Shown: positions 51,697 to 62,774 of the stretch, piece by piece | Layout: every line of letters starts with the position of its first letter | Position numbering within the stretch: position 1 is the stretch's first letter | IMG/VR virus record: IMGVR_UViG_3300036985_006490 | Span: 64,001 to 128,000 of that record | Direction: 5' to 3' (one strand) | Source of the DNA: a virus | DNA: 64,000 nucleotides | Program-made: the position numbers and the translations under genes | The notes under the pieces: model-generated | Seen by the model: the letters and a program-made list of their open reading frames with translations, nothing else | The model's database searches: none | What the model was told of the DNA's origin: nothing

Positions 51697-52534
51697 TTTT
51701 TTTGTAATTGATTTTTAAGTCTTCCTCATTTAACATCGAGGGAATATAATTACTGAATTTTTGTGAAATATGATTTATTAGGTTTTTTGCATATCTTCTA
51801 TTGTGATTTGGTCCAGGATGCGCTCCATCCGATCCAAAGTCACTGAAACTACTGTAATCCCCGTCAAACCTGTTAAATTCTTGGTAATCTTTGGGAATGT
51901 TCAACCATCCATTCCATATCCAATTACATTTCTTCGTCTCCAAAAAATACTTTATCAGAAGATGATTTTTATACCAATTCATAAAATCTTCATAATCATT
52001 TTGTATTGCAGTTAAATTATTTTGTAATTCCCGACCGTCTTCAGTCTCCTCAGTATATCCCCATTGTGAAGTTATCATGAATGGCTCTAAACCTCCGTCT
52101 TTGGTATAGAGTTCCCTTCTATGAGGTTGAGTATACATAATTAAAACTAAGTCAGGTTTTATAAAATCATAATAAGTTATTAGGCACCTTGCGATAAAAT
52201 CATTACTTCGTCCTCCCACACCAAAGTTATGGTCAACTCCATTTTTAATTAATTTAGAAAATTGTGCAGGCCATGTTTCATCATTATTAACTCCAACACC
52301 TTCAGTATTAGAGTCCCCAATAGACATTATCTTAAACCCATCTTTATGTATTGAATCTCCTCTGAACCCTAATTCATTATAAGTATATGTACATAACCGG
52401 GTTTTATCTGAACCTGATGTGTGATATGACTGATTAACCTTTTCAGATAAATTCCATTTGTAACTTGATATTTCAAATCCTTTTGGAGTCCAATATTTAA
52501 TATTATCAACCGACTTAAAAAATATTTCATCCAT
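51689..52534 (-). CDS. SGNH-like protein
   Basis: YNELGFRG, GDSNTEGVG, NFGVGG-x-SN, DGAHPG. Confidence 0.7.
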   Translation of the reverse strand: MDEIFFKSVDNIKYWTPKGFEISSYKWNLSEKVNQSYHTSGSDKTRLCTYTYNELGFRGDSIHKDGFKIMSIGDSNTEGVGVNNDETWPAQFSKLIKNGVDHNFGVGGRSNDFIARCLITYYDFIKPDLVLIMYTQPHRRELYTKDGGLEPFMITSQWGYTEETEDGRELQNNLTAIQNDYEDFMNWYKNHLLIKYFLETKKCNWIWNGWLNIPKDYQEFNRFDGDYSSFSDFGSDGAHPGPNHNRRYAKNLINHISQKFSNYIPSMLNEEDLKINYKKII

Positions 52535-53610
52535 TATATTAGATTTTGTTTTTTTGAAATAAATTCTTGTAAATTATGCCAACATTGCTCCGAAGGAATA
52601 AATGAATTAACTTCCCGAACAAAGTCATCATAATCGGGGTGTGAAACATCCCAAACTTTTTCTGTTTCAAACTCTTCATGAGTAAATGTTCCCCAGTTAT
52701 TAATTTTTCCATAAAAAACATTAACTTTTTTTCCAAAAATTGACAACATTAAATCATAAAACATTTTCATTTCTTTATAATTTTTTTGTTGTACTACAAA
52801 AGAAGTTTTAATATTCTTCAAACCCCTTATAGTGTTAATGAATTTTAGATTTTCAATTAATTCATCCCAATTCCCACCAACTCTCACTTTATTTTCATAT
52901 GTATCTTTAATTGCGGCATCGATACTAATTTCACATGTTTTCACATATTTGTGAACTTTGGTCATTGATTCCCACATTTTTCTATCCCATCTTGTAGCAT
53001 TGGTATGAAGATGTATATGGGTTAAACTTGGCCATTTGTTCGAATCAAAGTTTCTGAGAAAATCTCTAAACCCAACAGAAAGGAAAGGATCCCCAGTTCC
53101 AGTAATGTATAGTCTTTTTGTTGTTTGTCCATATTGTGATTCAATCTCATCGATAGTTTTTTTCACTCTTTCAATTCCCTTGGAATTTTCTACTATCAAG
53201 TTTATACGACAGGATGGGCATTTGAGATTACAAGTTCTGTCGAATGAAAATTGTATTGTGGATGGTGGAGTCACAATTCCCTTTTTGAATGAATCTATCT
53301 TTGATTCCAAGTCCTTTGGTAGTCTATTTTTGTGATATAATACACTTGTGTTTCCAATTTCACCAAAATTTTCAAGTTGATGTAAAAAGGGACATTGAGA
53401 TTTATCACAGTGTCTAAAAGAACCATCTATTACAGATTCTCGTATTTCGTTTGCTTCAGATGACTCCCAAGCATCTTTTGGAGATGTATGTTGTGGTAAA
53501 TGTTTTTTCAACCAAGATGCACAACACAAAAATCTATCCTTTTCATGAATTTCAAGAGCGGCAAAAGGTACTCCACAAACATAATCTTTTAAATCTATCT
53601 CAGTATTCAT
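52534..53610 (-). CDS. N-terminal twitch/SPASM radical SAM protein
   Basis: C-x-x-PF...LCC...W...C-x-x-x-x-CP, CNLKCPSC, ITGTGDPF, TNA, ISIDA, FVVQ-x-x-N. Confidence 0.88.
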   Translation of the reverse strand: MNTEIDLKDYVCGVPFAALEIHEKDRFLCCASWLKKHLPQHTSPKDAWESSEANEIRESVIDGSFRHCDKSQCPFLHQLENFGEIGNTSVLYHKNRLPKDLESKIDSFKKGIVTPPSTIQFSFDRTCNLKCPSCRINLIVENSKGIERVKKTIDEIESQYGQTTKRLYITGTGDPFLSVGFRDFLRNFDSNKWPSLTHIHLHTNATRWDRKMWESMTKVHKYVKTCEISIDAAIKDTYENKVRVGGNWDELIENLKFINTIRGLKNIKTSFVVQQKNYKEMKMFYDLMLSIFGKKVNVFYGKINNWGTFTHEEFETEKVWDVSHPDYDDFVREVNSFIPSEQCWHNLQEFISKKQNLI

Positions 53611-53649
53611 TTATCTAAAATTATAAGACAATTTTTAGTTTTATCACCA

Positions 53650-54474
53650 TTATATGGAAGATTTGATTTTTTCTAAATGATTGAAAATTGGATAACCATC
53701 CCAAGTAGATTCGAACGTATTCGGCTTTGTCTTTGATATTAGATTTGGTTCATTCAATTCAATCCAATTGAATATTTGGTTTGAGATATATTCATAACCT
53801 AACTCATTTGGATGTTCACATATCAGTGATTTCATATTCGGATTATTAATGAAATTAGGAAAAATAGACTTTGTAAACTTCATTAAGTTTTTTGTGTTAT
53901 GTAATTTTTCAAAAAGTACGTTGTGATTGTAATCTACTGGTATGTAAAAAAATTTGTATTTTTTCGTTTGACAATGTTCTTCCATTATTTTTAGGTAAAA
54001 AATTTGTTCTAAAAATGGGTCTAAATCTATGTTATCAATAAATTTGATGTATTCCCTTCCAATATCATAACTGTGAACATTGTAAATATTTTTTTCCATA
54101 CTCGGATTTATGTTCAGTACTGAACACTCCCTATAAAAAGAAAACCTGCTTGGAATTGGTAATAACCAAATTAATAAAACATCGAATTCTTCTGATAAGT
54201 TTTTATCATAATATTTTTCGAACCACACTTTCAGATTTCCCGAAGTCGATGATCCACCAAATCCTAAATTTATTAGACAATCATAATTTATTTGTTTTTG
54301 AAGATTTGTCGGCCAAGAATATTTATGAAATCTTTCTTTACTTGGAAAATAAACTTCTTCAGTATTTTTATACTTGATTTTATTCTCAACTTTGTATGAA
54401 ACTACCTCAGGGGCATAACAACCAACACCTTCGGTAAATGAACATCCAATTGTTATTAAAAGTTTTTTTTTCAT
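53650..54474 (-). CDS. SGNH-like protein (G-C-S variant)
   Basis: IGCSFTEGVG, NLGFGGSS, HPNELGY. Confidence 0.65.
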   Translation of the reverse strand: MKKKLLITIGCSFTEGVGCYAPEVVSYKVENKIKYKNTEEVYFPSKERFHKYSWPTNLQKQINYDCLINLGFGGSSTSGNLKVWFEKYYDKNLSEEFDVLLIWLLPIPSRFSFYRECSVLNINPSMEKNIYNVHSYDIGREYIKFIDNIDLDPFLEQIFYLKIMEEHCQTKKYKFFYIPVDYNHNVLFEKLHNTKNLMKFTKSIFPNFINNPNMKSLICEHPNELGYEYISNQIFNWIELNEPNLISKTKPNTFESTWDGYPIFNHLEKIKSSI

Positions 54475-54491
54475 ACTAAATCATAACTTTA

Positions 54492-54986
54492 TTAGATGAG
54501 TTTGTTATTTTCTTTTGAAACAACATCTTCATGATTAATAAACATAATAACACTCCTACGAGTTCCCTTGGTGATTTTTTTCACCTCATGGTCATACTTG
54601 GATTCGAATACATACGGTACTCCAATTTCTTTTTCAATAAAATAATATGGGTCATAAACAATATAGTCTCCACCCTCATAATTATCATTCAAATGAAATC
54701 CTGTAACCAAGTATCTATTTTTACCATAAACATAATTATTATCAGTATGGCGTAGAAAATAGTCATTTTCTTTATACCTCATAATCACAAATTTTTGGTC
54801 ATAAGAATTTAAACTCAAATTTAATTTTGATTCGACCCATTTCAATAATTTTATTTTAACAGGAATTACTAAGTCAGATTCAATTATTTTAGCGTCATAA
54901 CTCCTATCCCGTTTGACAAAATATTCTAAATCATGATAAAGCGTTTCTATCGATTCGATTTCATCTTGAGTAATTAATTTCATCAT
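54492..54986 (-). CDS. 2OG-Fe(II) oxygenase (prolyl-4-hydroxylase-like)
   Basis: RY...F-x-x-HTD, LNDNYEGG, HEVKKITKGTR. Confidence 0.85.
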   Translation of the reverse strand: MMKLITQDEIESIETLYHDLEYFVKRDRSYDAKIIESDLVIPVKIKLLKWVESKLNLSLNSYDQKFVIMRYKENDYFLRHTDNNYVYGKNRYLVTGFHLNDNYEGGDYIVYDPYYFIEKEIGVPYVFESKYDHEVKKITKGTRRSVIMFINHEDVVSKENNKLI

Positions 54987-54994
54987 TATACCGA

Positions 54995-55441
54995 TTATAT
55001 TAAACTATTTTTTTTTATTGAAAGTGGATTATTATGCATAAACCCAACTAAGGTATATCTGTCTCCAATACAATCATTTACTTTATGTTGTTCATCACCA
55101 GAAAAATAAATCATATCTCCCGTTTTAGGTTTGTATTCTTTGCAACCAAAAATTACTTCACCTCCAATAAAATCCTCATTTAAAAAAATTATAAATGACC
55201 ATGGGTTAACATGTCCATGAAATGTCTCTATCTGTTTAATAGTTTCATTAACCATTTGAACTCGAATTTTTTTGAAAAAAAAATTTGAAAATTTTTGTAT
55301 AGTTAAATCTCTATTTATTAAATCTATATAGTAAAATTTATATACATTATCTCCATAATAATTCATTTTTTCATTATTAAACATATCAATGAAATATAAA
55401 ACTTCTTTTTCTTCCAAGAATGATTTCACATATTTTATCAT
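54995..55441 (-). CDS. 2OG-Fe(II) oxygenase (HxH variant)
   Basis: FHGH, FLNEDFIGGE, P-x-x-G, HKV...RYTL; start MIKY. Confidence 0.8.
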   Translation of the reverse strand: MIKYVKSFLEEKEVLYFIDMFNNEKMNYYGDNVYKFYYIDLINRDLTIQKFSNFFFKKIRVQMVNETIKQIETFHGHVNPWSFIIFLNEDFIGGEVIFGCKEYKPKTGDMIYFSGDEQHKVNDCIGDRYTLVGFMHNNPLSIKKNSLI

Positions 55442-55451
55442 AAGTTTATGT

Positions 55452-55919
55452 CTAAAATGGTTTATTAACGCAAATTTGACCAAAATGTGAGAATAGTAAA
55501 TAGCATTCTCCCTCCTCGATTTTACTTACTTGTTGGTTTGTAGATCTTCCATGAATTACTCCATACCCTGTAGTCATCTTGTTACGAACATTATTGAAAT
55601 AAAAATTTCCTCCTATAAAATCTTCATTTAAAAAAACAACAACAGTGAACGTCGTATGTCTATATAAACTTTTTTGATTACTATAATTAAAAGTATGGGT
55701 TGGTAATCTATATCCTTTTGATAATTTTATAATTCTGTTTTCAATTATTTCATTTACTGAAATCTTTTTGTTTTCATAAAGAATATTTTTCAATTTTGTA
55801 TCTAACCAATTGTATTTAATAAATTTCTGATAGTATTTGAAATCTTGGTCATACAGTTGCCATTCAGATTCGTTTGAAAGGAGTAAACTACATTCTTCCT
55901 TTGAAAAAAATTGATACAT
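55452..55919 (-). CDS. 2OG-Fe(II) oxygenase-like protein with degenerate metal ligands
   Basis: FLNEDFIGG core, but HTF in place of HxD and QQV/EC in place of H-x-V/R. Confidence 0.65.
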   Translation of the reverse strand: MYQFFSKEECSLLLSNESEWQLYDQDFKYYQKFIKYNWLDTKLKNILYENKKISVNEIIENRIIKLSKGYRLPTHTFNYSNQKSLYRHTTFTVVVFLNEDFIGGNFYFNNVRNKMTTGYGVIHGRSTNQQVSKIEEGECYLLFSHFGQICVNKPF

Positions 55920-55920
55920 T

Positions 55921-56520
55921 TTATATGATATTATTGGTATATTTAACTTGGTTTTCCACATCTAAACAAAAATTTCCAGCATACACGATTCTATCTAATT
56001 CAGATTTTGGGGTAGGGATTGCCGTATGTCTTATATTTGCCGGAAATATAAAAAAATCTCCTTCTTGTGGTAAAAATTTATGTCTTATTTTGTCTTCAGT
56101 TTCGAAAACAATATGCCCCTCATCTCCTTTAATATCTTTTGGTGTTTGTAAGTAATATGTGAACGTAAAGTCCGTCGTAATATTTGACCGACCAGGTGGA
56201 TGAACTAAAAGATGTTGGTGTAACCATTCCATATCAAACCCTTTGGTCTGAGTATATATCCAAAAATGTTCCGCATAATTAATAAACTTTCTATTTGAGA
56301 TTTCTTCTACGTATTTTTTAATTTTTTTATTAATTTGTAGAAAACATTTAGTGTTTATTTCCATCCAAATTGAATTCTCTTTTGTTTGAGTTTTGGTATA
56401 GATTACTGATGAATCATTTAACTTTGCATATTTAAGACAATCATCTTTTATATTCATAAATTTATCATCATGACCTTTATGAATAGTAAATGTCGTAGAC
56501 AACTTCAATTCTTGAATCAT
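55921..56520 (-). CDS. putative 2OG-Fe(II) oxygenase (TIGR02466-like)
   Basis: W...HQH, YYLQTP...G-x-I-x-F, P-x-EGD-x-x-IFPA-x-x-x-H, RIV-x-AGN. Confidence 0.8.
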   Translation of the reverse strand: MIQELKLSTTFTIHKGHDDKFMNIKDDCLKYAKLNDSSVIYTKTQTKENSIWMEINTKCFLQINKKIKKYVEEISNRKFINYAEHFWIYTQTKGFDMEWLHQHLLVHPPGRSNITTDFTFTYYLQTPKDIKGDEGHIVFETEDKIRHKFLPQEGDFFIFPANIRHTAIPTPKSELDRIVYAGNFCLDVENQVKYTNNII

Positions 56521-56954
56521 ATGATTTTTTTATCAATTTTTTCGTATCTCTGATAGTTACTGAGTATTTCCTCTCCCTTTTTAATATCTCTTATTGATTT
56601 CATACTATTTTTATCAATATTACTTTTAGTTTCATAATAACCACTGTTCACAAAATAATATGGGTTAGTATAAATCCAATGACAACTGTTAGTTAATTTT
56701 ACATAAATGCTAGTGTCTTTTGGGAAATCTGAGGAAAATAAAAATAAATCTTGAATGTGTTGACGTAATTCCTCATTCAATTCACTTAATTGGTCTTGAG
56801 TTATGGGGTAGAATCCTGTTTTACCCTCCCACAATTGAAACAAAAGTGTGTCTTTAACGATATCTTTTATCGCAAAAACTCCTATTCCTGAAATATTACT
56901 TGGTTTCAACTTTACAAAAACACAATTTTTTATGTAATTGTACGCATCCATCAT
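56517..56954 (-). CDS. SET-domain methyltransferase-like protein
   Basis: S-x-I-x-GIGVFAIKDI, FVNSG (NHS position altered), RDIKKGEEI-x-x-NY. Confidence 0.8.
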   Translation of the reverse strand: MMDAYNYIKNCVFVKLKPSNISGIGVFAIKDIVKDTLLFQLWEGKTGFYPITQDQLSELNEELRQHIQDLFLFSSDFPKDTSIYVKLTNSCHWIYTNPYYFVNSGYYETKSNIDKNSMKSIRDIKKGEEILSNYQRYEKIDKKII

Positions 56955-57103
56955 AAATGTTTATTCATAAACAATTCAAAAAATTTACCAATTACAGTTT
57001 CGACTCTTTCTTTTTCTGTAGTTGATAATTGTTCGGTTGTTCTGTTTTTAATTTGATTTAAGGACTTTTTTTTGTATAACTGAGGGTGTTTAGATATATC
57101 CAT
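56951..57103 (-). CDS. small protein (50 aa) between the poly-Hint and SET genes, absent from the ORF track
   Basis: MDISKHPQLYKKKSLNQIKNRTTEQLSTTEKERVETVIGKFFELFMNKHL*; ATGA-coupled to the SET gene. Confidence 0.65.
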   Translation of the reverse strand: MDISKHPQLYKKKSLNQIKNRTTEQLSTTEKERVETVIGKFFELFMNKHL

Positions 57104-57113
57104 GTTTGTAAAT

Positions 57114-59846
57114 TTATTTGTTATGTACTAATACTCCATTCGCATAAAAATTTTGATTGTCAGCAACTGAAATAATATGCGTTTGTGTGTTTATTCTTTC
57201 CAATTCTGTTATAGAAACAATCTCCAAGATTTCTCTGTTAGGTTTGGTTAATTTGTCCCCAATATTTATTTGTGTTACTTCCAAAGGAATATCATATCTT
57301 TCATTAGTCCACTTTGGTTTATAAGACGCAAGTTTTAATCCATTAACATAAAATGGGTGGTCAAATGTTGAAATGATTTCTGTATCATCAGAAAGTATGT
57401 ATTTAACTAAATCATCATGTATGGGTGAGTTTACTTCTGTAACTTCTCTTTCCTCCACAACATTTATAATTTCATTGTAAGACAATACTAAATCCCCCAC
57501 GTTAATCTCTTCAATATTTTTTTCTATTCCATTTCCCATCAAAACTTTAGTACCGCTTATAAAACAAGCTTTATTGTGGGTTAAAATACCATTAGCAAAA
57601 AAGTTATGATTATTGGTTACTTCGAAAATATAAGTTTGTGTTGGTTTGAATTCTAGTTCTTCAATTTTAGTAATTCTTGTATTCAATCCGTCAATTAAGT
57701 TAACATTATCTCCTACTTCTATTTGTGTGACATTATTATTAAAATTGTACCTATCGTTGGTCAATAAAGGTCTATATGACGACAAATTAAACCCATTTAT
57801 AAAAAATGGGTGGTCAAAAGTACAAACAATTTCAGTACCATTTTCAAAAGAATACTTAACCAAATCATCATGAATCGGTGTAATTATATTTGTTACGGTT
57901 TGATTTTCTTTTAATCCTGTTTCTAAATTAACTGAAACTACTATATCACCATTCGCAATATCTTCAATTGGTTTTGTAGTTCCGTCTGCCATTTCAATCA
58001 TTGTACCTTTTACAAAACATGCTCGATTATGTACCAAAACGTCATTAGCAAAATAATTATGATTAATTTCAACTTCAGACAAATTGTATACTTTAGTCTC
58101 TTCATTAACTACGGTAATTTTATCCAAAATAACATTTTTGTTCATTAATTTCACAGAATCTCCGATTTCAATTTTTTGTACTGGTTCACCTATTGTGTAT
58201 AATGTATTTGATAATAAATTGTCATAAGATGACCAACCCTTACCATTAACGAAGATTGGGTGGTCAGTTGTCGATTTGAGAGTACCCCCATTATCAAACT
58301 CATAAACTACAATTTTATCTATTTTTTTGGAAAATACATTTAATACTTTACTAACCTTTGTCTCATTACTATTGAAGTTGAATGACAATATAGAATCTCC
58401 AATTACAACATCTTCAATATTTTTTGTTGTACCATCTTCCATTTGAATTTTGGTACCTGCAACAAAACAAGGAGAGTTATATGATACAATACTATTGAAC
58501 GCCGTAGAACCATTTATTATATACGTATCGGTATCTTCAACATCAAGTTCAACGAATGCCAACCCAGTCTCGGGTGAAACATAGAAGTTTAATTCGTCAA
58601 CTTTAATCAAGTTACCTTCCAAATCATATACGTAATCAGTTACTGCGTTTATTTCAGAAATAAATTTAATACTACTTTTATCAGATATAGAATCATAAAT
58701 CAAATATTTTTTGTTAATACCTGAAAATAGCGAATCATTATCTATCACCATTTCCATCATTGCCCCATATTTGAGTTGTTTAACATCTTTGAAGACAACC
58801 TCGGAATTACTAATATAAGATCCATCAGGAAACTCACCTCCATCATAACTCCAAGTTAAAGCATTCAAATCAGTTTCAGCTTGAGGGGATCCATTAACTT
58901 TATAAGACTTTATGGTTTCACCAACTTGAATTTCGGACACTTCTTTCCAAGTTTCATCATTCATCAAAACTTCATGGGTAGACAAAATTCCACCCGAATC
59001 GTTTTTGATAAAATTTGTTGTGAATTCATAGTAATGATGGTCTTTAACTTTATTACCTTCCAATTCTATCGATTCAGGTAATTCAAATATAGAACTGATT
59101 TTATAAGAATGCAGTATCATTATATCCAAATTTCCCCCATAAACTATCCCAAAAACTCTTATTGATGTAATATGATTATCCTCATCTACACTTGATGGGT
59201 GAATGTGATATTGTTCAATTAATTTATTTTCATCAGAATTTTCAGATAAGAAATCATTCCAACAATTTTCAGATGTTCCTCCAGTTAAATTAATTTTGAA
59301 AAAATCAATTGGATTAAAAGATTCATATACATCCTTTATAGTTGCATCTGGTATGTTACCTGTATTTATTTCTTTTGTCAATGTATCATAAGTACCTACT
59401 GATGAAGAATGGTAATATCCAACACAATTATCAGTTATAAAGCTATCGGTGAACAAATTATAAACATTCAATCTATTTTTACAATACACACTGTCAAATA
59501 TTGCGGTTTCGTCGTAGGCTAATCTTAACACAAATTTATCGGCAGCATCCGCAACTGATGTTGGATAAATTGAATTAATATTCTCGTCATGTAAGTTGAT
59601 GACGATTGATGGTAGATTATTATTAACTTCTTCAACAAGTCTATTAACAAAATCTATGTGTAAAAATGGTTTATAGATAATGTCTAAAGTTGTGATGTTG
59701 TTTGACGATAATACTGATAAAAATCCACTAAAGTCAAAATTCACCAATTCCTGGTCGATAAACCCAGTATCCGTATTTAACTCTAATAATCTTAAATCAC
59801 CATTTGAGTCTTTTACAAAGTCTGCCGAAAATAACGTTCCTTTCAT
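57114..59846 (-). CDS. ATP-grasp-like domain fused to four tandem Hint (BIL-like) domains
   Basis: N-terminal ADF-x-x-D-x-NG-x-L-x-LLELNT plus K...IEQY...SIR; Hint1 (G286-N457, degenerate); Hint2 C460-N607, Hint3 C610-N758 and Hint4 C761-N909, each CF-x-x-GT...T-x-DHP...HN. Confidence 0.85.
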   Translation of the reverse strand: MKGTLFSADFVKDSNGDLRLLELNTDTGFIDQELVNFDFSGFLSVLSSNNITTLDIIYKPFLHIDFVNRLVEEVNNNLPSIVINLHDENINSIYPTSVADAADKFVLRLAYDETAIFDSVYCKNRLNVYNLFTDSFITDNCVGYYHSSSVGTYDTLTKEINTGNIPDATIKDVYESFNPIDFFKINLTGGTSENCWNDFLSENSDENKLIEQYHIHPSSVDEDNHITSIRVFGIVYGGNLDIMILHSYKISSIFELPESIELEGNKVKDHHYYEFTTNFIKNDSGGILSTHEVLMNDETWKEVSEIQVGETIKSYKVNGSPQAETDLNALTWSYDGGEFPDGSYISNSEVVFKDVKQLKYGAMMEMVIDNDSLFSGINKKYLIYDSISDKSSIKFISEINAVTDYVYDLEGNLIKVDELNFYVSPETGLAFVELDVEDTDTYIINGSTAFNSIVSYNSPCFVAGTKIQMEDGTTKNIEDVVIGDSILSFNFNSNETKVSKVLNVFSKKIDKIVVYEFDNGGTLKSTTDHPIFVNGKGWSSYDNLLSNTLYTIGEPVQKIEIGDSVKLMNKNVILDKITVVNEETKVYNLSEVEINHNYFANDVLVHNRACFVKGTMIEMADGTTKPIEDIANGDIVVSVNLETGLKENQTVTNIITPIHDDLVKYSFENGTEIVCTFDHPFFINGFNLSSYRPLLTNDRYNFNNNVTQIEVGDNVNLIDGLNTRITKIEELEFKPTQTYIFEVTNNHNFFANGILTHNKACFISGTKVLMGNGIEKNIEEINVGDLVLSYNEIINVVEEREVTEVNSPIHDDLVKYILSDDTEIISTFDHPFYVNGLKLASYKPKWTNERYDIPLEVTQINIGDKLTKPNREILEIVSITELERINTQTHIISVADNQNFYANGVLVHNK

Positions 59847-59939: not shown

Positions 59940-60482
59940 TTACAAAAGGGTTTTAGGACTTGAACTAGTTGTTCTTGAGATACAGATATGCGTAAGTTCT
60001 AAACTTTGTGATAAACTTAGTTGAAAATCAATTATATGGTATACTTCAGAAAAATTAATTTTATTGAATTGAACTCTTTTATTATGCTCCAAAGTATTCG
60101 GATATAGATTAATAATTCTTACTTTTTTATCAAGATTCGAATTAATTAACTCGAGTGAAGATTTTTGTAAACTTAATTTATTTTCTCTATAATCATCAAA
60201 ACTACCATTATTGAAGATGGCCGAAGTTAGAACGTTAAAAATAGTTTTATCCTGATATTTCCACAAGTCAAAAAGTTCTTCAAATATTTTTTGTTGGTAA
60301 ATCGGATGATATGTATTATTAATAAACACATCCAAATCTAAAACTTCATTTAGAATGTCTGTGTATCGTTTAAGGTCATACCCATTACTTCTTGAAAAAC
60401 CAAAAACTTCATGGTTTTTTTTCAAAAAATCATAAAGACCTCTACCCAAAGAATCACTGTGTCCTGTTATTCCTATCTTCAT
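59940..60482 (-). CDS. short-chain dehydrogenase/reductase-like protein
   Basis: IGITGHSDSLG, GFSRSNGYD, DVFINN, YRENK (YxxxK). Confidence 0.7.
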   Translation of the reverse strand: MKIGITGHSDSLGRGLYDFLKKNHEVFGFSRSNGYDLKRYTDILNEVLDLDVFINNTYHPIYQQKIFEELFDLWKYQDKTIFNVLTSAIFNNGSFDDYRENKLSLQKSSLELINSNLDKKVRIINLYPNTLEHNKRVQFNKINFSEVYHIIDFQLSLSQSLELTHICISRTTSSSPKTLL

Positions 60483-60991
60483 ATTAAACTAACACTACTT
60501 TTCATATTTTCCTTATATAAAAATATTATTAATGAATACCGAATACCACTTTCAATTTTTGTAACCTCATGTTCTCTTGTATTTTTGAAAGAATAAATTG
60601 TACCAGCTATTTTAGGAATAATTTGTGTAGGTTTATATAATACAAAATCACCTCCCACATAGTCATCATTCAAACAAACTCCAACATTCAATGTTTGATT
60701 AGGATAGTATATGTCACTATGTCTTTCAAATTCATTTCCGGCTATGTATTTGTGTAAATGTATTACTTCAAAGGGTTTGGTTATTTCGATATTTTGGTCT
60801 ATTAACAAATACTCAGTAATTTTATCAAAAATCCATTTTACCGACTCATTTCGATAAATATTATAATAAGTATACGATATTTTTTCCCTCGGTCTTTCAA
60901 CGGTTTTACTATTCACATCTCTGTGAGTACCCTCTATTTCTAAGGTTAAATTTATAATCTTATCACACTCTTCTTTAGAAAAACAAACCAT
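60479..60991 (-). CDS. 2OG-Fe(II) oxygenase (prolyl-4-hydroxylase-like)
   Basis: FSKEEC, KY...F-x-x-HSD, LNDDY-x-GGDF, HEVTKI-x-SG-x-RYSL. Confidence 0.85.
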   Translation of the reverse strand: MVCFSKEECDKIINLTLEIEGTHRDVNSKTVERPREKISYTYYNIYRNESVKWIFDKITEYLLIDQNIEITKPFEVIHLHKYIAGNEFERHSDIYYPNQTLNVGVCLNDDYVGGDFVLYKPTQIIPKIAGTIYSFKNTREHEVTKIESGIRYSLIIFLYKENMKSSVSLI

Positions 60992-60993
60992 AT

Positions 60994-61110
60994 TTAATGA
61001 TTGTAAATAAAAGGATCTCTTTTCTTTAATTCTTCAATTTTCTTTTTTAATTCTTTTTTTCTTTTTCTTTCCTTAATTTTTTTAAGGAACCAATCAATAA
61101 TTTTTTTCAT
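60994..61110 (-). CDS. small basic protein ending in DPFIY (38 aa), absent from the ORF track
   Basis: MKKIIDWFLKKIKERKRKKELKKKIEELKKRDPFIYNH*; ATGA-coupled to the carbamoyltransferase. Confidence 0.65.
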   Translation of the reverse strand: MKKIIDWFLKKIKERKRKKELKKKIEELKKRDPFIYNH

Positions 61111-62774
61111 AGTATTTTGTGTATTATATAATTATCTAAAACTAACAAGTCTAAATCAGTATCCTTAAAAGTTTCTATCGCGTCAAACGGAGTTAGTACC
61201 ATTGTTTTATCTTTAACGTTGAATGATGTATTCAATATAATTGGATACCCACTTAATTTTTCAAACTCAATTAATAAGTCGTGAATTACTGTATTTTCAT
61301 ACACAGTCTGAATTCTTGATGTTCCATCCACGTGAACAACCGCAGATAATTTATCTGCAAATTCTTCCCTTACTTTAACAATTTGATTCATGTATGGTAT
61401 ATCATCAATCGTATGAAAAAATTCATTTTGTTTTTCTTTAATGACCATAGGCGCGAAAGGACGAAACCCCTCTCTTTTCTTAATCAATCTATTAATTCTG
61501 GATTTCATATCGGGTACAGTAGGGTCGGCTAAAATAGACCTGTGTCCTAATGCTCTCGCTCCGAATTCGATTCTATCTCTATACCACCCAACTACTTTAC
61601 CTTCATGGATTTTTTTGGCTACGTATTTTATTAATGTATTGTAATCGTGAATTTCAAAAAAGTTCAAATTTTTAATGTGACCCATATAAAATTCAACATC
61701 ATACTTTGGCCCCAAAAAAGGATTCTTAGTTACTCTTTTGTTTAATTTTTTATTTTGTACAAGATAATGAATACAAGCACCAACACAGGACCCTGCATCT
61801 GATGGAGCAACTGGTATCCAAATTTTTTCAAAATCAGAATTGGATACTATCTTCCCATTCGCAGTACCATTGTATGCCGAACCACCTCCTAAGCAAAGAT
61901 TATTACTACCAAGATTTTTCAAACTTTTAATAATATCAAACAAAACTTCTTCGTATCTTAATTGAACTGCAGCCGCTAAATTTTGATGAATTGTAGTAAT
62001 TTCTTCTTCAGTTAATCTTGGTGAAATACCTAAATGTTCTATTAGTTTTTCGTTGAACATCAATTTTTCTGACTTATCCCAACAAAAAACATCCATGTCA
62101 CAGATTAATTCTCCATCTTTGAATTCTATTAAACTTCTAATTTTTTCAATATTCTCTTGAGGGTCTCCATATGACGCTAATCCCATTAATTTATATTCTC
62201 CTTCATTTGGTTTGAACCCCAAATACGAAGTCATTGTAGAATAATAAAACCCCAATGAATGAGGATATTTCCCCAAATCATGATATTCAATTCCATCATC
62301 ATCCGCCAAACCAAAAGATAATGTATCAATTTCACCAACACCATCAATAGACAAACAGATTGCCCTTTCAAAATCGGAAGTGAAAAAAGAATAATACTGA
62401 TGAGCTAAATGGTGTTCGGAGTAAAATACTCTTCCCTTAAATGGCCTCAAATGTTTATTTACATCTGAGATATTTTTTAAGATCTTAACTAAAGATTTCA
62501 AAGAATATTTCGGTGATTTAAAAAAGTTTTTCTTGATGTTACTAAGTACTCTTTTTAGTTTTAGATTGAGGTCTTCATAATAACAAACCATGTCAATATC
62601 GTCATAAGTTATACTATAATGACTAAAGATGTATTCAATTGTATTAATTGGAAAAGAACTATCGTGTTTAATTCCCGTAAATTTTTCCTCTTCACAAGCA
62701 AAGACTAACTCCCCGTCTTTGAATAGACAGACAGATGAATCGTGATAAAAAGATGAAATACCAAGTATGTACAT
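61107..62774 (-). CDS. carbamoyltransferase (CmcH/NodU/TobZ family)
   Basis: ILGIS-x-FYHDSS, EEKF-x-GIKH, EHH-x-AH, IDGVGE, EGEYKLMGLA-x-YG, EFGARALGHRSILADP, FRPFAP, HVDGTSR-x-QTV, LNTSFN. Confidence 0.95.
   Translation of the reverse strand: MYILGISSFYHDSSVCLFKDGELVFACEEEKFTGIKHDSSFPINTIEYIFSHYSITYDDIDMVCYYEDLNLKLKRVLSNIKKNFFKSPKYSLKSLVKILKNISDVNKHLRPFKGRVFYSEHHLAHQYYSFFTSDFERAICLSIDGVGEIDTLSFGLADDDGIEYHDLGKYPHSLGFYYSTMTSYLGFKPNEGEYKLMGLASYGDPQENIEKIRSLIEFKDGELICDMDVFCWDKSEKLMFNEKLIEHLGISPRLTEEEITTIHQNLAAAVQLRYEEVLFDIIKSLKNLGSNNLCLGGGSAYNGTANGKIVSNSDFEKIWIPVAPSDAGSCVGACIHYLVQNKKLNKRVTKNPFLGPKYDVEFYMGHIKNLNFFEIHDYNTLIKYVAKKIHEGKVVGWYRDRIEFGARALGHRSILADPTVPDMKSRINRLIKKREGFRPFAPMVIKEKQNEFFHTIDDIPYMNQIVKVREEFADKLSAVVHVDGTSRIQTVYENTVIHDLLIEFEKLSGYPIILNTSFNVKDKTMVLTPFDAIETFKDTDLDLLVLDNYIIHKIL

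Follow-up and report, generated by a model that had tools for sequence, protein, structure and literature searches.

A viral protein with a predicted ATP-grasp-like domain, a half-disabled Hint domain and intact BIL-type Hint domains stacked in its variable C-terminal tail

We describe a large, almost wholly viral protein family in which a half-disabled Hint domain (Hint1) appears permanently fused to a predicted ATP-grasp-like enzyme, with up to three intact BIL-type Hint domains stacked behind it. The member described here, from an uncultured marine phage, is a 910-residue protein translated from the open reading frame at 57114-59846 (minus strand) of a 64,000-nucleotide stretch of viral DNA (positions 64,001 to 128,000 of IMG/VR record IMGVR_UViG_3300036985_006490; henceforth the window). 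On balance, we favor reading its BIL units as intein-like elements that excise themselves from the variable C-terminal tail of an ATP-grasp/Hint1 enzyme. The gene and its immediate neighbor are organized as follows:

58992-59846, minus strand: N-terminal domain (N-domain, residues 1-285), predicted ATP-grasp-like fold of the GS/GspS (permuted) type, beginning at the metal motif D9 / E22-x-N24
58476-58991, minus strand: Hint1 (residues 286-457), predicted Hint fold with Gly at position 1, no block-B His and an SYN end
58470-58475, minus strand: spacer Ser458-Pro459, X-Pro in 144 of 200 scorable BIL-bearing family proteins and 0-14 residues in the remainder
58026-58469, minus strand: Hint2 (residues 460-607), intact BIL-type of the 'R-type' clade (+1 Arg), from Pfam, NCBIfam, the unit tree and catalytic-residue conservation
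58020-58025, minus strand: spacer Arg608-Ala609, in nearly all relatives R first and then 0-10 variable residues
57573-58019, minus strand: Hint3 (residues 610-758), intact BIL-type of the 'K-type' clade, missing from very close relatives
57567-57572, minus strand: spacer Lys759-Ala760, in relatives KA, KF, KS, KT, KN, KGGG or KGGGGGS
57120-57566, minus strand: Hint4 (residues 761-909), intact BIL-type of the 'K-type' clade
57114-57119, minus strand: Lys910 and the stop codon, the protein ending HN-K
56951-57103, minus strand: partner reading frame of 50 residues, beginning 10 nucleotides downstream of the stop codon of the 910-residue gene

The initial annotation had drawn the protein as a domain of roughly 285 residues followed by four Hint domains, and the translation bears this out. 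The junctions read exactly N-SP-C, N-RA-C, N-KA-C and N-K-stop, and the nucleotide borders that had been given for Hint2-4 coincide with the unit borders 460-607, 610-758 and 761-909. Each of these three units opens with CF-x-x-GT (CFVAGT, CFVKGT and CFISGT in Hint2, Hint3 and Hint4), carries the block-B motif T-x-DHP (TTDHP, TFDHP and TFDHP, in the same order) and ends in HN, while Hint1 starts with Gly, has no TxxH and ends in SYN. With a unit size of only 148-149 residues, there is no space for a homing endonuclease in Hint2-4, as had been noted.

Profile searches recognized the three intact units as Hint domains. In Pfam, the Hint-clan families Intein_splicing (1.8e-25), Hint (9.7e-19) and PT-HINT (6.5e-17) each match three stretches above the gathering score, and NCBIfam places three N-terminal and three C-terminal intein splicing regions (TIGR01445 and TIGR01443, respectively). 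A phmmer search of the PDB with Hint3 identified BIL2 of Tetrahymena BUBL (6y75, E 1.9e-12) as the nearest solved relative of the intact Hints and also matched the BIL of C. thermocellum (2lwy, E 3.3e-7); Hint2-4 and Tetrahymena BIL2 have the end NNHNFFANG..HN in common. Among 283 unique BIL units of the family, the three from the window included, C1, T67 and H70 are conserved in 100% and the terminal HN in all but one (282/283), while paralogous units are 36-48% identical to one another. These alignments point to strong purifying selection on all catalytic residues of the BIL units, which makes autoprocessing of the array very likely.

The residues flanking the units follow a distinct pattern. 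The +1 residue is Lys in 159 and Arg in 110 of the 283 units (K or R in 95%), Thr twice and never Cys or Ser; it is never missing, in that no family protein stops directly on HN, and the -1 residue is variable. In a tree of the units, the first and the later ones form separate clades, R-type and K-type. The +1 residues of Hint2, Hint3 and Hint4 are R, K and K, whereas class 1 inteins have Cys, Ser or Thr at this position. With Cys1, TxxH, His-Asn, a non-nucleophilic +1 residue and no endonuclease, Hint2-4 conform to the pattern of A-type BIL domains (Amitai 2003, as summarized in PMC7765530 and PMC7664689), as the initial annotation had proposed, and they also share the location of such domains, since across the family they lie in a hypervariable tail behind Hint1.

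Hint1 has no Pfam match of its own. We nevertheless assign it a Hint fold because a family profile of Hint1 matched the Tetrahymena BIL2 chains 6tmm and 6y75 in the PDB (E 1.3e-5) and because the top Foldseek matches of its AlphaFold model are 6y75 (1.7e-9) and 2lwy (3.6e-9), with TM by target of 0.78-0.90. All 30 relatives compared keep G286 and N457. Gly286 stands in place of an N-terminal nucleophile and Ser372 occupies the position of the block-B His; the +1 residue is Ser, yet Cys1 is absent. The proposal that such a domain could act only at its C-terminus is upheld: judged from these residues, only the chemistry of the C-terminal Asn should be possible. The penultimate residue is Tyr in the window protein; of the relatives with a BIL array, 178 have His there, 16 Ser, 5 Tyr and one Ala.

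The N-domain matched nothing in Pfam, PHROGs or NCBIfam and nothing credible when its sequence profile was compared with the PDB. Its AlphaFold model (pLDDT 81.6, pTM 0.79) retrieved GS/GspS-type ATP-grasp enzymes exclusively at Foldseek ranks 1-12 (E 3e-5 to 3e-4, probability 0.99-1.00), led by YgiC (7uk8, E 3.4e-5) and followed by YjfC and the soybean, yeast and human GS, with GspS at ranks 19-27. Aligning the same enzymes with VIA-align gave Z scores of 8.4-7.1 over 190-234 residues at an rmsd of 4.4-5.7, a range that is only moderate according to the tool. D9, E22, N24, K59, R108, K171 and R230 do not vary among 22 diverse relatives with identities as low as 33%, the assignment of Mg-ATP residues having been made by motif and not by superposition. 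D9, E22 and N24 are kept, together with Gly1 and HN of Hint1, even in members without a BIL. In one relative (P0350), residues 1-38 aligned with the end of the RimK profile (positions 142-179 of 188) at a sub-threshold E of 0.18. The structural model identifies the N-domain as an ATP-grasp-like fold of the GS/GspS (permuted) type and a putative carboxylate-amine ligase.

A homologous reading frame encoding 43-55 residues comes next after the gene in all nine genomic contexts that we examined. The initial annotation was silent on this partner and on the fold of the N-domain. When the 50-residue partner was modeled together with the core of the 910-residue protein, using our own alignments, the complex reached an ipSAE of 0.89 (0.91, 0.89 and 0.88 in individual runs) against 0.00 for the best of three controls, with run agreement of at least 83% and a partner pLDDT of at least 80; 58 solved complexes out of 80 attain this mark, as do 2 of 110 mismatched pairs. 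The model supports binding of the partner to the core. We also considered that the partner might be fused to the Hint tail in some proteins, which share its ...KHL end, and rejected this because a separate partner reading frame remains downstream in the genomes concerned (L006 and L007).

The family comprises 339 clusters at 50% identity, almost exclusively from viral DNA, and its members hold zero to three intact BILs. Among 127 complete-looking representatives, 38 have one BIL, 27 have two and a single one has three, while 13 have short tails and 21 have Cys-rich peptide tails; others finish in a Hint without HN, such as the terminal variant Hint with a Pfam Vint match in P0252, or in Peptidase_S74. 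We found no family form longer than 1593 residues, and none longer than 935 residues among the best 120 of 912 matches (500-1593 residues) and the 150 of 339 clusters listed. Neither the gene nor 10 kb of the window had a megablast match in 50,697 phage records, from which those of this genome may be missing, and tblastn of the protein against phage records returned only intein-level matches (helicase inteins of Vibrio and Ruminococcus phages) and none to the N-domain. In the 162.8-kb record, an NCLDV capsid and T4 gp23 gave no match, and neither did the controls. The sole cellular match among 185,579 species is a contig of 2.8 kb from the bin of an uncultured Cyanobium MAG, which is probably phage DNA. 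Neither ATP-grasp/Hint fusions nor tandem phage BILs were the subject of any paper that our literature search retrieved.

The tail behind Hint1 varies in length, sequence and BIL content. Spacers between Hint1 and the first BIL measure 0-14 residues, with none at all in 17 proteins and a single residue in seven; the second spacer ranges from R alone to RGTTTTTVLPL. Conservation within the spacers is confined to the basic +1 residue and to the X-Pro ahead of the first BIL, the latter fixed within the closer subfamily. Divergent members have aromatic or Gly-rich 7-14-mers or Cys-rich 27-35-mers at the Hint1-to-BIL position, and these resemble real peptides. Distant relatives carry Cys-rich peptide tails behind Hint1, and in some of these a BIL directly precedes the terminal Lys. 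Among homologous Cys-rich tails, some have no BIL and others have one lodged in their Gly-rich end, ahead of the last Lys residues; by their sequences they look like intein-minus and intein-plus alleles. Alleles with and without the element, as known for class 1 inteins, are found in the Cys-rich tails and again for Hint3, which some near-identical relatives have and others lack. It is absent from two of them (P0008 and P0013), whose final unit matches Hint4 at 94-98% identity; another relative (P0007) has a Hint3/Hint4 chimera, and a K-type unit was separately duplicated in the P0074 lineage. Sequence comparison indicates that BIL copy number shifts by recombination.

According to the reading that we favor, the gene product would be a self-processing precursor. 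Its lasting part would be the core (residues 1-457), in which the ATP-grasp-like ligase domain stays permanently joined to Hint1 through Gly286 and is clamped, in the complex model, by the 50-residue partner. Everything beyond Asn457 would be a variable tail, which in this phage amounts to about seven residues (S-P, R-A, K-A and K) and would be occupied by three endonuclease-free BIL-type Hints acting as intein-like intervening elements. By analogy with known BIL biochemistry, from which we infer that a unit is cut at its two ends, an intact BIL would form a thioester at Cys1 and cyclize its terminal Asn, and each would thereby excise itself; Hint1 would be limited to cyclization of Asn457, with the penultimate His absent in this copy. 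Processing would be expected to leave a ~52-kDa core, three separate ~17-kDa domains and a few linker residues, the dipeptides being extein or linker remnants rather than the purpose of the array.

Several observations sit uneasily with self-excision from a passive tail. If Hint1 removes the whole tail, two perfect active sites in every BIL would not be expected, and their retention suggests a role for tail maturation or for the free BILs. A passive linker would not need conservation as strong as that of the basic +1 residue and the single terminal Lys, the spread of BIL elements without an endonuclease is not accounted for, and the closer subfamily has a fixed X-Pro ahead of its first BIL. 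In inteins, a Pro at -1 generally disfavors the N-S acyl shift, and the Hint1/Hint2 junction may therefore behave differently.

In a rather unlikely alternative, the BILs splice, by aminolysis that follows C-cleavage or, like BUBL BIL2, through the epsilon-amine of Lys, to produce the short basic tail SPRAKAK, a peptide that would be the cargo, like the Cys-rich peptides of relatives, and would then be released by Hint1 or modified by the ATP-grasp domain. Selection on an extein that is needed predicts perfect pairs of active sites, as seen in every unit. Homologous Cys-rich tails with or without a BIL rejoin to the family-typical ...GG..K end, joined spacers resemble the BIL-less tails PPAKIEPAK, KVKIEPPK and KPKQPKK, and whatever the tail type, proteins of the family are enriched in a terminal Lys, which is the last residue of 70 of 127 cluster representatives against a background of 13 of 54 window reading frames. 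Moreover, the nearest solved relative, BIL2, makes a Lys isopeptide (PMC8616854), and BIL ligation without nucleophilic side chains is the subject of Aranko 2013, by its title as cited in PMC7664689. However, BIL domains without a +1 nucleophile yield mainly N- and C-cleaved products (PMC7664689), and the Arg at +1 of the first unit is no good nucleophile. Nor is the sequence SPRAKAK conserved, and some relatives have a single-Lys tail or no spacer, so that a functional peptide cannot be general.

A wider and more speculative version, to which we give somewhat less credence still, casts the whole system as a viral peptide-maturation machine. The ligase and its micro-partner would hold a C-terminal cargo, Hint1 would free the amino end of the cargo through Asn cyclization, and the carboxyl end would be activated by a downstream BIL or else, at the terminal Lys, by the ligase. 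If this were true, the products would be cyclic, cross-linked or transferred peptides and the system a natural counterpart of SICLOPPS, with the window protein as its minimal-cargo, maximal-BIL extreme, possibly yielding cyclo(Ser-Pro) or a tail of the SPRAKAK type.

It is improbable that the array is itself the functional product, either by BUBL-like conjugation to a target Lys or as free 17-kDa domains, with an N-terminal Cys and a C-terminal succinimide, dosed by copy number. Position-specific R-type and K-type clades have been maintained through long divergence, a K-type unit was duplicated a second time independently, the nearest relative, BIL2, hands a ubiquitin-like domain over to Lys residues, and the terminal Hint without HN in P0252 is Hedgehog/Vint-like, a type that uses thioester transfer only. 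Yet there is no cargo domain between the units and no known acceptor, and members with 0, 1, 2 or 3 units all persist.

The initial annotation had seen the dipeptides themselves as the point of the array, a view that the family does not sustain: with spacers of 0-14 residues, specific dipeptide products are unlikely, RA and KA vary in both length and sequence, and near-identical relatives do without Hint3 and one of the spacers. Random spacer length combined with unconserved catalytic residues had been named there as grounds for abandoning the idea; spacer length does vary, whereas the catalytic Cys, His and Asn are conserved. In chemical terms, the amine freed by upstream Asn cyclization would attack the thioester on the downstream Cys1 to give diketopiperazines such as cyclo(Ser-Pro), or the dipeptidyl group would be transferred. 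The order of a C-cleaving Hint, a peptide and a thioester-forming Hint has the right geometry, being the natural counterpart of engineered dual-intein (PMC4339811) and SICLOPPS layouts, and in divergent members the peptides at this position look real. The prevalence of X-Pro before the first BIL fits as well. X-Pro thioesters cyclize readily, but Pro at -1 usually hinders formation of the thioester, Hint1 of the window protein has no penultimate His, and some proteins have one-residue spacers or none. We consider such a device very unlikely, and rejected a family-wide X-Pro diketopiperazine precursor, X-Pro being restricted to the closer subfamily. That the Hints are inert structural repeats is least credible of all, given full conservation of Cys1, Thr/His and His-Asn in the 283 units at 36-48% identity between paralogs; nothing specific speaks for it, although Hint1 is a precedent for a Hint retained as a fixed domain. 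The idea that R/K at +1 serve as N-degrons of released fragments was likewise rejected because the final single Lys, equally conserved, would be left unexplained.

Hint domains are familiar from inteins, which are selfish elements, from the release of toxins and from the processing of Hedgehog. Among the closest parallels to Hint2-4 are the A-type BILs (C. thermocellum, 2lwy), with which they share the mini Hint, Cys1, TxxH, His-Asn, a non-nucleophilic +1 residue, the absence of an endonuclease and a hypervariable host region. In contrast to these, the units of this family are stacked up to three deep, head to tail, with spacers of 0-2 residues and no domain behind the last; their +1 residue is almost always basic, and the host is a phage enzyme rather than a secreted bacterial protein. 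Tetrahymena BUBL also has several BILs per polyprotein, and its BIL2 is the best solved relative of Hint2-4 by sequence and of Hint1 by structure, but its BILs are separated by ubiquitin-like domains that are conjugated to Lys (PMC8616854), whereas just one or two residues lie between the units here. PT-HINT toxins and the Hog domains of Hedgehog and Vint resemble the family in that a Hint releases or transfers its neighbor; in relatives of the window protein, Hint1 precedes a Cys-rich cargo that varies, or the last Hint lacks Asn. The window protein, however, has neither a toxin domain nor a sterol-recognition region, and Hint1 is predicted to cleave C-terminally, while Hedgehog acts at the N-terminal junction only.

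For the N-domain, the GS/GspS ligases (E. coli YgiC, 7uk8, and YjfC, 7uk6) provide the top folds and share the metal hairpin before the ATP-binding lysines and the D / E-x-N triad; YgiC and YjfC are peptide-spermidine ligases according to the title of Pederick 2023, cited in PMC12270671. The N-domain differs from them in having no profile match, in its size of 285 residues without their N-terminal part, in its fusion to a Hint and in its predicted need for a 50-residue partner. The engineered dual-intein cassette (PMC4339811) and SICLOPPS likewise set a C-cleaving beside an N-cleaving intein, and there the pair processes a polyprotein or frees a short peptide; those are man-made, while the phage arrangement is natural and widespread.

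The family offers intein biology natural tandem BILs with clean plus and minus alleles, copy number that appears driven by recombination, and an unusual basic +1 residue, and it puts natural pairs of C-cleaving and N-cleaving Hints at the disposal of protein engineers. To students of phages it presents a predicted ligase of two proteins that has gone unstudied, and the hypervariable Cys-rich peptides of relatives may represent a new route to phage-made peptides. The predicted ligase lies beside SET-domain and 2OG-Fe(II) oxygenase genes.

The poly-Hint gene (minus strand, 57114-59846) has an open reading frame and encodes 910 aa. Three stretches of the protein each match the Pfam families Intein_splicing, Hint, PT-HINT, Hom_end_hint, Vint, Hint_2 and AXH, NCBIfam recognises intein splicing regions, three of them N-terminal and three C-terminal, and an HMM made from the units places their borders at residues 460-607 (Hint2), 610-758 (Hint3) and 761-909 (Hint4). 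Each of these bacterial intein-like (BIL) units has CF..GT at its start, T.DHP inside and HN at its end, and the junctions from the end of Hint1 onward read N/SP/C, N/RA/C, N/KA/C and N/K-stop. The coordinates, motifs and junctions that the initial annotation had assigned to Hint2-4 are all borne out by the unit HMM, Pfam, NCBIfam and the sequence itself. Since the units are only 36-48% identical to one another in pairwise comparison, their duplication is old. The top-scoring Pfam family for Hint2-4 (57120-58469) was AXH, the ataxin-1/HBP1 module (1.8e-37); among the papers listed by a literature search on the AXH domain with Hint and intein, none used the term AXH domain, and residues 2-104 of Hint3 matched ataxin-1 AXH chains with phmmer (E 1e-5).

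Among 283 unique intact units of the family, Cys1, Thr67 and His70 are conserved in 100%, and all but one (282) carry His-Asn. Position +1 holds Lys in 159 units and Arg in 110, position -1 varies, and no family protein has HN as its very end. The unit tree divides cleanly in two: one clade holds 117 first-position units with +1 Arg, the other 138 later-position units with +1 Lys (K-type), and branch support for the split is modest (0.64-0.72). The spacer between Hint1 and the first BIL is X-Pro in the closer subfamily and 0-14 residues elsewhere, with none in 17 proteins; the second spacer (RA in the window) runs from R alone up to 11 residues in relatives, and counterparts of KA read KF, KS, KGGG and KGGGGGS. 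Of the regularity that the initial annotation sought in homologues, the catalytic residues thus show it and the spacer lengths do not.

BIL copy number is labile across the family. Two near-identical relatives, P0008 and P0013, are without Hint3 (57573-58019), and their last unit is 94-98% identical to Hint4 of the window. A unit of P0007 is 80% like Hint3 over its first 30 aa and 100% like Hint4 over the remainder, a chimera whose sequence indicates the footprint of unequal recombination between units. In the three-unit P0074 lineage, a K-type unit has been duplicated independently.

A word-indexed search returned 912 relatives, and a search of 1.84 billion representatives with a profile of the N-domain (residues 1-285) returned 339 clusters at 50% identity. 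Among the matches listed, the N-domain begins at residue 1 in nearly all clusters, and lengths are stepped by about 150 aa (about 470, 620, 760 and 910). One intact BIL is present in 38 of 127 complete-looking representatives, two in 27 and three in a single one, and the window protein is therefore the maximal form; other tails in the same set are Cys-rich (21), short (13) or a terminal Hint without HN (about 20). The clusters are 96-100% viral by ESM Atlas labels, with Uroviricota commonest. A search of 50,697 deposited phage records, from which records of this genome may have been withheld, did not find the family. It is nearly absent from cellular genomes: 185,579 prokaryote species genomes gave a single match, the 2.8-kb contig L012 (CAYNGR010000277.1), which is probably phage DNA; its binning with an uncultured Cyanobium MAG is a weak hint that some members infect picocyanobacteria. 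The window covers bases 64001-128000 of an IMG/VR virus record of 162.8 kb (estimated completeness 49%). PHROG matches to an SbcC-like nuclease and a DNA primase indicate a large T4-like marine phage, and the contigs of relatives, with T4-type replication genes and a Kyanoviridae marker, point the same way.

The N-domain was recognised by none of the sequence libraries searched. Its model, built from an alignment of 22 diverse relatives (pLDDT 81.6, pTM 0.79), retrieved at Foldseek ranks 1-12 exclusively ATP-grasp enzymes of the glutathione synthetase (GS) / glutathionylspermidine synthetase (GspS) type (E 3e-5 to 3e-4), including E. coli YgiC and YjfC and soybean, yeast and human GS, with GspS itself at ranks 19-27. 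An independent all-against-all alignment recovered the GS/GspS-type set at Z 8.4-7.1, only moderate by the tool's own note. The protein starts ...SADF...LLELNTDT, and D9, E22, N24, K59, R108, K171 and R230 are invariant in relatives. An acidic / E-x-N metal motif lies at the end of the classical ATP-grasp domain and early in permuted eukaryotic GS and GspS; we take D9 and E22-x-N24 to be this motif, with residue roles assigned by motif. In one relative, residues 1-38 align with the final part of the RimK profile at a sub-threshold E of 0.18. We read the N-domain as a putative permuted-type, ATP-grasp-like ligase, with model support for its fold.

Hint1 (residues 286-457) lacks a separate Pfam match. 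A profile of 30 family sequences matched Tetrahymena BIL2 chains (E 1.3e-5), and the best Foldseek matches of its AlphaFold model were BIL2 (6y75) and a C. thermocellum BIL (2lwy), upholding the Hint fold; the invariant Gly as first residue, Ser in place of the block-B His and the C-terminal SYN agree with the initial annotation.

The poly-Hint gene is flanked by the following features:

56951-57103, minus strand: partner ORF, 50 aa, 10 nt past the poly-Hint gene
56517-56954, minus strand: SET-domain protein
54492-54986, 54995-55483, 55921-56520 and 60479-60991, minus strand: four 2OG-Fe(II) oxygenase-like ORFs
61107-62774, minus strand: carbamoyltransferase
52534-53610, minus strand: radical SAM protein
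52534-56954 and 59940-62774, minus strand: flanks of the poly-Hint gene with these neighbours

These kinds of neighbour recur, SET and 2OG genes beside homologues in other phages; we give this little weight because marine phages commonly carry genes of these kinds. An ORF of 43-55 aa homologous to the partner lies within a few bases downstream of the family gene in 9/9 contexts examined (20% to 68% identity); one Tyr is invariant in an alignment of the first seven collected, and most of the nine end in K-H-L/S or close to it. Models of the partner with the core (N-domain plus Hint1, residues 1-457) reached ipSAE 0.91, 0.89 and 0.88, and three controls all gave 0.00; contact agreement across runs was at least 83% and partner pLDDT at least 80. 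The mark applied was reached by 58/80 solved complexes and 2/110 mismatched pairs, counts that are only rough here because own alignments were used. The modelled partner contacts the N-domain and Hint1, including conserved loop 112-142, which is disordered in the monomer model. This modelling supports binding of the partner to the core.

In relatives, the tail behind Hint1 is cargo-like. Members without intact BILs retain Gly1 and HN of Hint1 and have short tails, e.g. PPAKIEPAK, KVKIEPPK, FK or K. In distant members (P0342, P0350, P0352 and P0357-P0377), the His-Asn of Hint1 leads straight into a peptide that is hypervariable, 23-60 residues long and built on the common scaffold xCxxC...CGNYWC...CxxC...GG..K, with six to ten Cys; in P0371 and P0376 the Cys-rich stretch is followed by C-terminal matches to Peptidase_S74 (endosialidase chaperone), sub-threshold at E 0.007-0.011. 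Five Cys-rich proteins (P0341, P0356, P0363, P0364 and P0351) share this scaffold and have a BIL inserted at its Gly-rich end, immediately ahead of the last Lys residues. Cys-rich tails with and without a BIL look like intein-plus and intein-minus alleles.

The main products of BIL domains that lack a +1 nucleophile are N- and C-cleaved (PMC7664689), whereas Tetrahymena BIL2, the nearest solved relative of the window BILs, forms a Lys isopeptide (PMC8616854). Because all catalytic residues are conserved, each intact unit is expected to form a thioester at Cys1 and to cyclise its own Asn; Hint1 would be capable of Asn457 cyclisation alone. In the best-supported reading, which is on balance probable, the three units would be endonuclease-free, intein-like and self-excising, seated in a short variable tail behind Hint1, the working enzyme would be core plus partner, and the dipeptides would be extein or linker remnants. 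Its weak point is that it gives no reason for all units to keep perfect active sites, nor for the retention of a basic +1 residue and a terminal Lys. These features are better accounted for by the main rival, in which the units would join the tail pieces again to give SPRAKAK; the with- and without-BIL alleles also suggest tail rejoining, and we consider this rival rather unlikely overall. There is a low probability that the array serves in BUBL-like conjugation or that the freed domains have a function. Less probable still is the dipeptide or diketopiperazine device of the initial annotation, which has a certain chemical attraction where X-Pro is fixed but, at RA, at KA and across the family, is contradicted by variable and sometimes zero-length spacers and by the dispensability of Hint3. 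That the units are inert repeats is very unlikely.

The initial annotation knew of no description of this architecture, and a full-text literature search likewise found no ATP-grasp/Hint fusion, tandem phage BILs or Hint-released Cys-rich phage peptides described. The parts are of known kinds (A-type BIL, ATP-grasp) and, on this search, their arrangement is new.

A variant terminal Hint occupies the last ~140 aa of P0241, P0249, P0252, P0262, P0280, P0281, P0092 and P0071; on P0252, the one member checked, the Pfam call is Vint. The variant keeps Cys1 and D..HP, has SG in place of HN and bears an extension of ~25 aa, LGDN..LN.KY.RQ...KHL. The end of this extension resembles the K-H-L end of the partner, whose ORF is nonetheless present downstream.
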